Assembly (NCBI GenBank): GCA_043814985.1
Contig: JBDRJK010000019.1
Span: 88,926-152,925 of the forward strand
Direction of reading: 5' to 3'
DNA: 64,000 nucleotides
From: Candidatus Aenigmatarchaeota archaeon
Lineage (GTDB): Archaea; Aenigmatarchaeota; Aenigmatarchaeia; Aenigmatarchaeales; Aenigmatarchaeaceae
Shown one piece after another: positions 25,881 to 31,616 of this stretch. Below the pieces are notes generated by a model. That model was given only the letters and a program-made list of their open reading frames with translations, ran no database searches and was not told the origin of the DNA. Every line of letters begins with the position of its first letter. Positions within the stretch are counted from its first letter, which is position 1. The position numbers and the translations under genes are program-made.

Positions 25881-28800
25881 TCACCTTATGACAGACTGTA
25901 TGATGTACTTTAAGTCCAAAGTACCCCAGTCTGATTTTGCCGGGTCTATCTTGTCCTCGCCGGCCGTGAACTGAATTATAATATTTCTGTTGTCTATGAC
26001 ATTGTAATTGTAATCAACCTTTAAATCCTGAAGTGCGTTCATAAGTCTTCTTTCCAGATAACCGCTGTGCCTTGTTCTCAGTGATGTATCCATAAGTGAT
26101 TCTCTTCCTGACACAGCACCGAAGAAGAACTCAAAAGGATTCAGACCTGTCTTGAAGCTGTGTGATGAGAAACCATGTGCTTCTGGTGAGAGATCTCCTA
26201 CCTTGAAGTGTGAAAGCGTTCTGTTCCTGTAACCCCTATGAATCCTCTCTCCCAAAACTCTTGCCTGCCCAGTGAATGCTGACAGCTGTGTAAGGTGGGT
26301 CATTGAACCCCTTGCCCCTGACTTTATCATTGCTATCAGGCAACTGTCTTGTGCTGAACCCTTTATCAGTTTTTCCACTTCCTGTGTTGATAATGACAAC
26401 GCCTTTAGTATGTGGCTTTCCAGGCTTGCCTTTGCAGTGCTGCCTGCAAGAATCTCTATCTTGCCTTCATTGTACATTTTAATCAATTCATCAACACTGC
26501 TTTTAGACTTCTTAATTATCTTGCCCACGTCATCTATTATTCCGCTTTCCAAATCAACGTCACTGATGCCTATGGTGAAGCCGTTCTTGTCCAGGAATTT
26601 TATGCTTAGTGATGATACCCTATCTATGAACTTGTGGGCAACATCTGTGCCGAACTCCTTCTCTATGACATCAATCAGTTTTCCATGCTCAGAACTAATA
26701 GCTTTTGAGTCTATAACTCCTCTTTTTAATTCGCCGTTCTTGATAACAACATAACCATCATTCGGGCAGGTTCCCTTGACACACTTGTCGCAACCACATG
26801 CCTTTGCTTTGAATTCTACATAAAGACCCTTGGGAAGCAGAAAACTGAAAATTTCCTTTCCAGTAAACTTATTTTTCTTGGGCAAGTCTATTATCAATCC
26901 TATGTCAGACAACAGCTTGAAGGTTTCTTCCCTTGTCATTTCAACGCCCTTCTTGGTTAACAAATAGCAGCCTGTTATCAAGCCTTCCTTGCATCCAATT
27001 ATGGGACCGCCGAACCTCGGAGACCTTATGTGATTCTGCACTTCCATCAGCATCCTTGCCTCTGTTTGGGCTTCTTCTGTCTGCGGCACGTGCAGGTTCA
27101 TCTCGTCGCCGTCAAAGTCTGCGTTGTAAGGAGGACATGTGCAGATGTTCAAGGTAAATGTTCTCCACGGAGTTACCCTGACTCTGTGTGCCATTATGGA
27201 CATCCTGTGCAAGGACGGTTGCCTGTTGAATAGGACAACATCATTGTTCTGCAGATGCCTTTCAACAACATAGCCGGGAGAAATCTCCTCGACAATTTCA
27301 TCTTTGGTTTCTTCGCTGACCTTCTTCTTCTTACCGTCCGCTCTTATTACATAGTTGGCAGATGGCCACGAAGGATATCTATCTACCAGTTTTTTAATTT
27401 CCTTGACATTGCTTTCAGTGACAGTGACAGGTATTGTCAGTTCCTTTGCTATGACCATTGGAACGCCAACCTCGTTAATGCTCAGACATGGGTCAGGTGA
27501 TATCACAGTTCTTGCTGAGAAGTTGACTCTCTTACCTGTGAGGTTCTGCCTGAACCTTCCCTCTTTTGATTTCAGTCTGTTGGAAAGGGTTTTCAGCGGC
27601 CTTCCAGACCTGTGCCTTGCAGCGGGTATTCCTGACAAAGTATTGTCCATGAATGTTGCAACATGATACTGTAACAGTTCCCATAAATCAGCTATTATGA
27701 AATCAGGTGCTCCTATCTCGATGTTCTCCTTAAGCCTTCTGTTTATTCTTATTATGTCAACAAGTTTGTGTGTTAAATCGTCCTCGCTTCTCTCTCCTGA
27801 TTCTAGAGTTATTGAGGGTCTCATTGTGACAGGCGATACGGGCAACAGCGTTATCAGGAACCATTCGGGTCTGCCTCCCCTTATGCCTATTATTTCCAGA
27901 TCCTCGTCAGGTATCTTCTCGAGCCTCTCCCTGACTTCCAATAGAGTCATTATTCTCTCGCCCTCGTAGAATGTATACGGCTTCTCAAACTTGATCTTCT
28001 CTAATTCCTCTGCACAGTGTGGGCATTTTTTGGGTGTTGAGGTTGTTGATGCTGACACGATTCTGCCGCATGACCTGCATGCTACTTTCAGTATCTTGTA
28101 AATCAGCTTGGAATACAAAACATTAACAACAGGCTTTGTCAGTTCAATGTAGCCAAAGTGGCCGAAGTCGGATCCCATGCCCTTTCCGCAGGTCCTGCAT
28201 TTCAAACCAGGGTCTATAACTCCCAGTCTCGGATCCATGACACCTCCCTCCAATGGGAAGCCGTCATTGTCATAAAGTTCAGGCCTTGCTATTTCCCCTA
28301 CTGCCATTTTCTTTACCATCTGCGGCGATAGAAGCTTGAACTCAATTGCATCTACCAGTTTTCCCTTTAGGTATAATTTCGGATAAATCAACATGCTCTT
28401 TAGCTCGTCCAACAAAAGCTTGAAAGCATAGGACATCTCCACTTCAGAGACATCGGTACCATCGCAGACAGGGCAGATGTTCTTTTCTTGGAGTTTGTTC
28501 CATGCAGCAACAAGGCCGCACTTCTTGCATATTGGGACATCAACCTTGTCAGAGCTGAACCTTTCCTTTAAAGTTAAAACAGCACCATGCGCAATCAGGC
28601 AATCCTTTTCCATTTCTCCCAATCTCAGTCCTCCCTCCTTTGCCTTTCCTTCTGTTGGCTGCCTTGTCAACAGTGTTACAGGACCTCTTGACCTTGCCTG
28701 TATCTTGTTCGCGACCATGTGGTCAAGCTTCTGCCAATATACCAAGCCAGTGAATATTTCAACATCAAACTTTTCACCTGTTATGCCATTGTAAAGGACT

Positions 28801-31616
28801 TCCTTTCCGTCAGACCTGAAGCCCAGCTCATTTAGAGTCTTCCTTATTACTTCTTCATTATCGCCTGTGAATGCAGTTGCGTTCACACTCTTTCCGTTTA
28901 ACGCAGAATTTTTTCCAGACAATATTTCCAGAAGCTGTCCTATTGTCTGCCTTGATGGGATGGAATGTGGGTTTAGTATTATGTCAGGTGTCATTCCCGA
29001 TGATGTGAATGGCATGTTCTCTTGCGGTTGTATCAGACCCAAAACAGATTTTTGGCCGTGCCTTGAAGAGAACTTGTCCCCAAGTTCTGGGACTCTCAGA
29101 TCCCTTACTGATACCTTGACATACTTGTTTCCGTTTGGTGTTTCCGTTAGGATTATTCTGTCAACTACTCCCTTCTCACCATGCCTCATTGTTATTGAGC
29201 TCTCCCTCATGTTTGCAATTCCTGTCATGAGTTCGTTTGCTGACAAAAATCTTAAAGGAGACGTCCTTCCAACTAAAACATCATCGCTTTTAACAGCAGT
29301 TTCAGGCGGTAAAATACCGTCTTCTGCCAGTCTTGAATACTCGTCCTCGTTCCTATATCCTCTGACATCCTTGTCAGGAATTCCGATTTCATCCTCCTGC
29401 CCTCCCCAGTACCTTTTTTCCACAGCAGGATAGACTCTGTAGAACATTGATCTGAACATGCCCCTTTCTATTGAGGCTTTGTTAATAATAGCGCCGTCAA
29501 GAAGGTTGTAACCCTTATGGGAGGCAATTGCAATAACAACATTCTGTCCTGAAGGATGGTGGTTCAATCCAATGGTGTCAATTGTGTCAGTCTTTACCAA
29601 AGGAGTTTGAGAATATATCAAGACATTAGACTTTGTGTCGCTTCTTAGGAAGAAGTTTGTCTGGTAAAGGCTTATTGCCTGGTTGATCATCTTTGCTCCG
29701 ATGCATACCCTGTCTCCCCTGTTGTGCTCTGGGAACGGAATCAGGCTAGCGGGGATTCCTAGAAGTCCTATTATTGTCATTTCCATATGCGTGTGAGCTG
29801 ACGTTATCCTCTTCTCATTAAGAGCAACCAAGACATCGTCCTCCTCAGTTGCATCCAGGTATTCTATGCATCCTAGCTTAGTCAAATCCTGCCAGAAGAT
29901 TTCTCCCTTGGTAAGCTTGTTCAGAATTTCTTCTGTTAGTTTTGGCCTGCTGTCCTCCAGAATTACCAGGGGCCTTCTAACTCTTCCTGCGTCCGTGTTT
30001 ATTCTTACCTCCTTCAGGATGGGATATAAAACAAAATTTACTTCTCCTGATATCTTGCCCTTCCTTCTCTTCTCTCTCAAATCATTAATTAGTTTTTTAG
30101 GATCAGATGTATAGCCTATTGGAATACCGTCCAAGTAAACATCAATGCCTTCATTGTCAAGCTTTATGGCTGCCATCAGCCTTTTTTTCTCGCTTTCTGA
30201 AAGGCCCTTTGTTATTTCTGCGAAAAGGGACAAGTGCTTTCTCAGACCAATTGTAGGACCTTCTGGTGTTTCTGACGGGCAGAACCTGTACCAGTGAGTG
30301 GGGTGCAGTTCCCTTGCTGCAAAATGTTCTTGGGTTGATGTCAATGGTGATAGAACTAATCTTAAATGGGATAATGTGTCAACGTAATTTTTCCTTTCCA
30401 ATCTTTGCGAAACTCCTGTCCTTCCTCCTATCCATGCTCCTGTTGCCATTGCAGACGCCAACTGATTTGTAACAACATTGGACTCGACAATGGTTTGGAC
30501 TGGAGGAAGCTTTCCCCTCTTGGCCATTTTCTGGTAGTTGTATTTTATTCTTGCTATCAATCCCCATCTTCCAACAAGAATTGACCTGAACAGCAACTCT
30601 AACAAATCACCGGATAACTTGATTCTCTTGTTGCCGTAATGGTCCAAGTCGTCCTTTGGTATTATTTCCAAGGAGAACTCTATTATCTTTTTCACAGCCT
30701 TCAGGATGTAGTTGGCCTTTTTCATCTTGTCCTTGGGATCCTGACCCAAGTGCGGCAGTAGGTACTTGTTGATTATCTGCTCAACCCTCTGCTTTCTGTA
30801 CTCCTTCTGCATTATCTTCAGATGCTTTCCAACAAACTCCAAGGCATCTCCTTTTGTCTGGACCTCTGTCTCGTAAAGGTTTGTATAGAATTCACTTATT
30901 ATCTTTTCATCCTCCAGACCTTCTACTATGTCCTTGTCCTTTTCCAGGCCAAGTAGTTTTAACAAAACAACTATTGGCAGCCTGCGTATGTTAGCAAATG
31001 AAATGCAAATAGAACCGTCGTTCTTCCTTTCTAAAGTATGTCTTTGAATAAAACCGTTCCTCTCAGAATTTATCCTTATCAGTTCAGTATAGTTCCCTAC
31101 ATGCTGCTCCTCAACTATCATCCTGTTAGGTGCTATTTCCTCTATTAGAACTAAAACCCTCTCAGTGCCGTTTATTATAAAGTATCCGCCGGGGTCGTCT
31201 GGATCTTCACCGGCTTCTTCCAGCTCTTCCCTTGACATCTTGCTCAAGGGACATAATTTTGACTTGACCATGATGGGCATCTCAGCGAGCAACACGCTCA
31301 CAGGTTCCTGCTCAACCTTGTTGACAATAGGTGTTGCCTCAAGATAGACAGGAGCAGTGTACGAGAAGTCCCTTAGTCTGGCTTCAATTGGTAGTATTTC
31401 CCTTATGCCGCCTTCAGCTTCTTTAACACAGGGTTTGCCAATTGTTATCTTGCCGAATTTTATCACAAGCTCTCCTATCTCTGGAACCTCGGGCTTGATT
31501 TCCTCTATCTGGTCTATTATTCCCTGCAGCCTGTTGTCAACAAACTCATTATAACTATTAATCTGGAATCTGACAAAGCCAATGTCGTTTTTAAAGGATT
31601 TTAAAATTTCATTCAT
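25881..31616 (-). CDS. rpoB-rpoA1: Fused RNA polymerase subunits B (Rpo2) and A' (Rpo1N), ~1911 aa
   Basis: RpoB motifs [45 protein letters not shown] run in frame into RpoA' motifs [43 protein letters not shown]. Confidence 0.93.

Follow-up and report, generated by a model that had tools for sequence, protein, structure and literature searches.

Archaea and eukaryotes are taken to have a fixed boundary between the B and A subunits of RNA polymerase, the second-largest and the largest. The locus studied here raises the question of whether it can be lost, and if so by what route and how often. We have analyzed a window of 64,000 nucleotides from a Candidatus Aenigmatarchaeota archaeon (contig JBDRJK010000019.1, positions 88,926 to 152,925), in which a single frame on the minus strand runs from RpoB (Rpo2) directly into RpoA' (Rpo1N). 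This fused gene is the sole copy of an essential enzyme, and its continuous frame is inherited. Comparison of related sequences indicates that about 19 distinct groups within the Aenigmatarchaeota have a fusion at this junction, three of them with full-length B.

The frame is open from stop to stop between 25881 and 31637, corresponding to 1918 amino acids when counted from a TTG codon. From the ATG at 31616-31614 the fused rpoB-rpoA' gene (25881..31616) encodes 1911 amino acids (215 kDa), identical to the public gene call. The RpoB part (28365..31616) is unsplit, with B'' and B' in a single frame, and contains the first double-psi barrel and a C-terminal zinc finger. The RpoA' part (25881..28358) contributes the clamp, the second double-psi barrel, the funnel and the beginning of domain 5. 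Twelve Pfam families score above their cut-offs, with all the Rpb2 domains (1-7) followed by Rpb1 domains 1-5(N), in order. In the 1918-residue numbering the NCBIfam models NF007175 (B''), TIGR03670 (B') and NF006335 (whole B) span 8-495, 500-1093 and 5-1093, respectively, with A' extending to 1917. NF007175, TIGR03670 and the A' models NF006336 and TIGR02390 exceed the NCBIfam cut-off, and NF006335 lies below it (1377 vs 1402). At the center of a 16-residue junction peptide (28385-28338) lie the codons GGA AAA CTG (28356..28364; Gly-Lys-Leu), corresponding to the last glycine of RpoB, the former stop and the former start. There is no stop between the two parts, so that B and A' are not encoded as separate polypeptides here.

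The catalytic NADFDGD motif (27105..27125, read 27125-27105) is intact, as an earlier sequence-only reading of this DNA had claimed, and both the motif (59 of 59 aligned fused sequences) and the clamp zinc ligands are invariant columns in alignments of 59 and 65 fused proteins. That reading also placed both catalytic halves of the polymerase in one polypeptide. This holds for the two double-psi barrels, but A'' (Rpo1C), which carries the trigger loop, is indeed encoded by a separate gene on the same strand (24728..25876; 382 amino acids, TIGR02389), 4 nt past the stop of the fused gene and in another frame. The protein is therefore not a full equivalent of a bacterial beta-beta' chain.

The same reading held that a single misread stop codon could not explain the frame. 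The argument fails on the window alone, since the old methionine is CTG, a rare start codon, right behind AAA, but the conclusion that there is no error stands, because independent contigs and relatives carry the open junction. Contigs from three studies bridge it without gaps. X2 (28057-28843) and X3 (28317-28497) show no differences from the window, and X4 (27643-29099), from a different strain or species in another study, shows 73 (about 95% identity) and keeps both junction codons. No indel or joint is listed at the junction in these contigs, nor is there sign of an assembly deletion; bridging was judged on contigs, and X1/X2 may be the source sample. Ten further species, with 77-93% identity and differing codons, have the same open junction, and the protein collection holds 25 clusters of proteins of 1909-1928 amino acids. 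Recoding of a stop codon was ruled out, as ordinary sense codons occupy the junction. No second polymerase copy was found by tblastn in the 0.81-Mb genome (91% complete). The open frame, the Pfam and NCBIfam assignments and the bridging contigs thus bear out a single gene for 1911 amino acids. We infer that it is translated as one chain, which would fold into a normal clamp with a hairpin at the join and form an enzyme together with A'' and the small subunits.

How widespread is the fused state? The family of the window contains 21 genomes, 20 with a match, of which 11 are fused and nine split, so that its close relatives do not all have separate genes. In the other families of the order all 18 genomes read are split at the junction. 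Among the 371 genomes of the Aenigmatarchaeota, 344 have a match and 63 of these are fused without a stop; the phylum counts are among the matches listed, and fusions with long linkers may add to them. All of the fused genomes were fetched, with translation confirming 63 of 63, and about 123 of the 281 non-fused ones were fetched and read. Full-length B is joined to A' in 15, namely the window's clade, G171, and G193, G195 and G305; in the other 48 B' is joined to A' and B'' is separate. When proteins were searched with the junction region, 114 hits were obtained, and all but one cover the junction fully (113). Twenty-five are of 1909-1928 amino acids and most others of about 1420-1460, and named hits are labeled only 'subunit B' or 'subunit A''. 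No chain above 1928 amino acids was found among the 114 (length range given as 1051-3345 amino acids), and a four-segment B-A'-A'' chain, also considered, is absent from them.

Outside the Aenigmatarchaeota the survey consisted of samples of three other phyla. Among the matches listed, none of 244 Parvarchaeota is fused (the phylum of G371; 251 sampled, including G618 and G619), and the 25 in-frame matches there all contain stops. None of 74 Micrarchaeota is fused (the phylum of G373; 76 sampled, including G695). One of 40 Nanohalarchaeota (the phylum of G372; 42 sampled) is fused, G642, and its A' nests among split genes of its own phylum. Long apparent open frames in G012, G029 and G039, in 17 genomes of the Parvarchaeota and in G628, G631 and G656 were rejected as fusions, each having stops in the spacer. 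In G194 (L274, G194:C19, about 3541-3546 in the locus) some 220 nt comprising the rpoB end and the rpoA' start have been lost and the frame is shifted, which probably reflects an error of assembly. This genome was scored split in the parsimony counts below and dropped from the IQ-TREE, approximately unbiased (AU), codon and gain/loss analyses.

Several records appear to be misplaced. A 9-kb contig with a fused B'-A' in a genome titled Heimdallarchaeota (G374:C117; L110 / L196) is sister to the Aenigmatarchaeota genome G053 (support 98-100) and is probably misbinned. The fused polymerase of G305 (G305:C127; L131 / L161), a genome of family f38 with three matches, groups with genus g88 of family f21 and is likely to represent contamination or transfer. 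G032 (L079), titled Micrarchaeota, falls by kinship and tree within the window's own order and is mislabeled. P0110, a B'-A' fusion of 1429 amino acids named Woesearchaeota, may be a mislabeled Aenigmatarchaeota protein or a further origin.

The trees point to repeated origin. With the junction columns excluded, the minimal number of changes of state is 19 on the A' tree (199 rows) and 18 on the B tree (197 rows). With the root split, gains alone account for 19 events, and a single gain needs 46-47 losses. A single clade for the 15 full-length fusions is rejected (p-AU = 7.6e-5), the tested group being defined by the trait and not by the tree. An IQ-TREE analysis of 49 rows unites the 11 fused genomes of the family in one clade (100/96) with the split G012 as sister (97/93), and all deeper sampled branches around this clade are split; the family is not resolved as a single clade. 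The proposal in the sequence-only reading that the fusion is a clade marker is thus right for the 11 genomes and wrong for the phylum, given about 19 fused groups, three with full-length B, and one case in a neighboring phylum. On these trees the fusion marks a small clade yet is highly homoplastic. The B''/B' boundary undergoes about six changes on the same tree, mostly gains (67 whole, 95 split, the rest unscored).

Seven loci have A' frames of 1120-1200 amino acids: L163 (G228:C18), L124 (G372), L132 (G373), L136, L139, L140 and L142. In G228, which has whole B, A' is apparently joined to A'', suggesting that the large-subunit boundaries vary further in DPANN.

The codons at the junction suggest a simple route. 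In the unfused G014 the junction position reads Gly, TAA, ATG in frame, and in G004, G010 and G015 it reads Gly, TAA, one base, ATG. The fused G019 has Gly-Lys-Met-Ile, one substitution or one-base loss away from these unfused relatives. By such comparisons the fusion arose historically from a one-base change that removed the stop codon, either a substitution or the deletion of a single base. Within the 11 fused clade genomes the former stop is AAA, AGA, AGG, AGT or AGC. The former start is ATG in three, CTG or TTG in four, and a non-start codon (AAA, TTA, CTA, CTA) in the remaining four, so that A' cannot be made on its own in at least these last genomes. Measured between fixed anchors in B and A', the distance is 39-51 nt in the fused genes (n = 61). 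In split Aenigmatarchaeota its median, 47 nt (n = 120), falls within these limits, and in 20 other archaea it is 54-84 nt with a median of 75.

The junction is also a site of insertion. Sixteen split genomes have spacers of 210-628 nt between the rpoB stop and the rpoA' start (loci L033, L031, L248, L263, L266, L253, L249, L270, L262, L237 and L235 among them). Many of these spacers hold an apparently unrelated small open reading frame on the same strand of 57-186 amino acids, such as one of 57 in G012, which is sister to the fused clade, and a hydrophobic protein of 100 in G039.

What would the join do to the protein? The sequence-only reading had suggested modeling the linker on archaeal structures. 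An AlphaFold model of the clamp region made with 65 fused sequences has a predicted template modeling score (pTM) of 0.80 and a confident hairpin at the junction, with strands 77-84 and 87-95 flanking a Gly-Lys turn (G85-K86) and a predicted local distance difference test (pLDDT) of 88-93. Its best structural match is 3QQC chain A (Z = 32.5, root-mean-square deviation 2.0 Å over 297 residues that lie on either side of the junction), which is also the best sequence match in the PDB over the junction. A model of 936 amino acids shows the same strand-turn-strand locally. The predicted effect of the join is to turn two already-paired strands of the clamp into a hairpin with a two-residue turn.

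These observations can be combined into a mechanism. Comparison shows that in the Aenigmatarchaeota B has been shortened at its tail and A' at its N-terminal leader, down to the two clamp strands, and that the genes abut, so that one base change suffices for fusion. Gly-Lys/Arg-Met-Ile results either from a T to A change in an in-frame stop directly before ATG or, where stop and ATG are one base apart, from deletion of a T. Because the two strands would be paired beforehand, the join would merely close the hairpin, at little cost. After fusion the internal start codon would decay, and therefore reversal would need a stop and a start to be created anew. Fusion would thus be gained easily but seldom undone, and drift would let it build up separately in many lineages. 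A fused gene would also fix a 1:1 ratio of B to A' and tie the Rpo2 and Rpo1 assembly modules together, a benefit that is hypothetical. We consider it probable that this is an ordinary functional archaeal RNA polymerase with Rpo2 and Rpo1N made as a single chain, and that the fusion is near-neutral, ratchet-like and enabled by trimmed termini.

A number of points weigh against this. In the two-state likelihood analysis the loss rate is estimated at zero for either tree and the gain-only model fits best, but by a modest amount, its lead over equal rates being 2.5 and 2.0 log-likelihood units, and this preference comes from FastTree single-gene trees enriched for fused taxa. Equally parsimonious histories have 12 gains and 7 losses on the A' tree, and 14 gains and 3 losses on the B tree. 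The outgroup of 20 in the spacing comparison is small and biased towards in-frame arrangements. The 936-residue model failed globally (pTM 0.40, 12-16 Å from solved polymerases), and only its local structure was used. The match to 3QQC is partly circular, as AlphaFold has probably seen this structure. Lastly, about 19 gains could also reflect selection.

More tentatively, the whole phylum might be viewed as a one-way, repeated natural experiment, in which clamp termini were trimmed and some 20 lineages then entered the fused state and none left it. With the repeated B''-B' and occasional A'-A'' joins, these lineages might be drifting or be selected towards a single-chain core with altered assembly, and the clade of the window, having joined three of the four segments, would be among the furthest along.

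Selection is the strongest competitor of the near-neutral reading, though an unlikely one. Tethering of the two large modules in genome-reduced symbionts would secure stoichiometry, speed co-translational assembly or stabilize the clamp, and would hence recur. The number of independent fused groups and the additional case in a neighboring phylum fit this explanation, as do the absence of any required loss, the mostly gained changes at the B''/B' boundary and the apparent A'-A'' join in G228. Yet 281 of 344 Aenigmatarchaeota genomes lack such a frame, including close sisters in genera g37, g56 and g64, and the equally reduced Parvarchaeota and Micrarchaeota showed none among those searched. Moreover, translational coupling of abutting genes already yields near 1:1 output. 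Assembly in Methanococcus, where loading of the Rpo2 module precedes that of the Rpo1 module, is sensitive to subunit balance, which favors selection, but the growth defects linked to assembly came from small subunits (PMC13556214).

It is less probable still that the junction toggles freely, with frequent fusion and re-splitting, such that some split genomes are reversals and the true gains number fewer (6-14). Equal-cost parsimony allows seven losses on the A' tree and prefers three on the B tree, weighting gains two- to three-fold gives 6-8 gains and 14-20 losses, and where ATG is kept at the old start, in three of the 11 clade genomes, one nonsense change could re-split the gene. The zero loss rate at maximum likelihood on both trees, the split state of all branches around the window's clade and the 46-47 losses demanded by a single gain count against it. 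A very improbable alternative is that the one frame yields two proteins, B and A' being regenerated by re-initiation at the old start or by proteolysis in the linker. The window does retain CTG at the old methionine, and seven of the 11 clade members have ATG, CTG or TTG there, but the other four have no possible start codon. Furthermore, B has no stop, so that re-initiation alone could not free it, and the linker is a predicted tight turn of two residues, with no conserved cleavage motif over the fused groups. A sequencing or assembly artefact, which might be suspected in a metagenome assembly with a relative (G194) carrying an assembly-type deletion over the same junction, has a negligible chance of being correct given the bridging contigs, the ten other species and the 25 protein clusters.

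Wolbachia is one of the bacteria having a beta-beta' fusion. The closest known system is that of Helicobacter and Wolinella, where rpoB and rpoC are naturally fused (PMC1557499, PMC9696931, citing Zakharova et al. 1998, 1999). By analogy the archaeal fusion would work alike without being a member of that group, and the suggestion in the sequence-only reading of an independent archaeal parallel is supported; the lineage is a DPANN one with small genomes. In both systems the reading frame passes from the C-terminus of the second-largest subunit straight into the N-terminus of the largest, and the operon is a conserved one in small-genome lineages. The present protein is archaeal and not homologous by descent to the bacterial fusion, whose models it hits weakly and far below their cut-offs (NF007172, 398.8 against 5372 bits; NF011417, 390.8 against 4632 bits), and has 1911 residues against about 2900, since A'' is separate. 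The bacterial fusion is described as a rare, family-marking event, whereas the archaeal one has about 19 apparent origins in one phylum.

A second precedent is artificial. 3QQC is an engineered Pyrococcus furiosus clamp in which pieces of B, A' and A'' were connected by short linkers; it folded and bound Spt4/5 (PMC3094117). The B C-terminus is connected to the A' N-terminus at the same strands by a very short linker in both, but 3QQC is a clamp fragment only, with a piece of A'', and its linker has two residues more in the alignment than the natural one. The B'-A' fusions of other Aenigmatarchaeota (about 1430 amino acids, 48 genomes) share the junction and the putative single-change route with the window. 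They differ in their apparently independent origins, in linkers 0-4 residues longer and in a separate B'', whereas here whole B is included and three of the four large-subunit segments are joined.

The archaeal states described are B vs B''/B', A vs A'/A'', and a secondary A'-A'' fusion in Pacearchaeota (PMC5484517, bioRxiv 10.64898/2026.06.17.729505, PMC13556214). These too re-partition large-subunit genes within the same operon, but they shift boundaries inside one subunit, whereas the B-A' join removes the boundary between two. The available portions of these three sources do not mention a B-A' join, and no description of an archaeal B-A' fusion was found in the open-access literature, including the accessible text of PMC8350355, PMC8131849, PMC13473441 and bioRxiv 10.1101/2025.05.02.651781, subscription journals and bioRxiv supplements being outside that scope. 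The join is apparently undescribed, although subscription papers or supplements may hold one.

Fusion and fission of the large subunits have been used as a phylogenetic character and called rare (PMC5484517, PMC1557499). With about 19 joins in one phylum, the character can rank among the most homoplastic once the termini have been trimmed. The many replicate sister pairs offer a means of testing a neutral ratchet against selection in gene fusion, and the protein provides a natural single-chain Rpo2-Rpo1N template for reconstitution and tests of ordered assembly. In databases the fused proteins carry no label beyond 'subunit B' or 'subunit A'', so that about a fifth of these genomes can lose one of two standard markers in marker pipelines. 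One pipeline splits fused proteins automatically (PMC13473441).

The fused gene lies in a conserved rpoH-B-A'-A''-L30e-nusA operon on the minus strand. Immediately upstream is a separate rpoH (Rpo5; 31621..31908; PF01191, NF007129), the ATG of the fused gene lying 4 nt past its stop, and beyond rpoA'' the operon ends with an L30e-family protein and a NusA-like gene (24089..24750). An RpoD-type domain (PF01000) is encoded on contig C15.

Elsewhere in the window, a segment of low GC content (33840-38242; 28-35% vs about 40%) encodes a 7TM-PAS histidine kinase, a response-regulator receiver and a protein of 206 amino acids without a Pfam hit. This two-component module is unusual for so small a genome and was possibly acquired. 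The signal recognition particle (SRP) receptor FtsY (533 amino acids, with a long N-terminal part) and SRP54 are encoded two genes apart at 8774-12213. A stand-alone LigD 3'-phosphoesterase domain protein of 150 amino acids (PF13298, 142 bits) lies at 39591-40043. Finally, five co-oriented genes at 53115-59251 encode a protein of 578 amino acids without clear family, a TIM-barrel protein of 510, a Pol-beta-type nucleotidyltransferase, a metallo-beta-lactamase-fold protein and a metallophosphoesterase.

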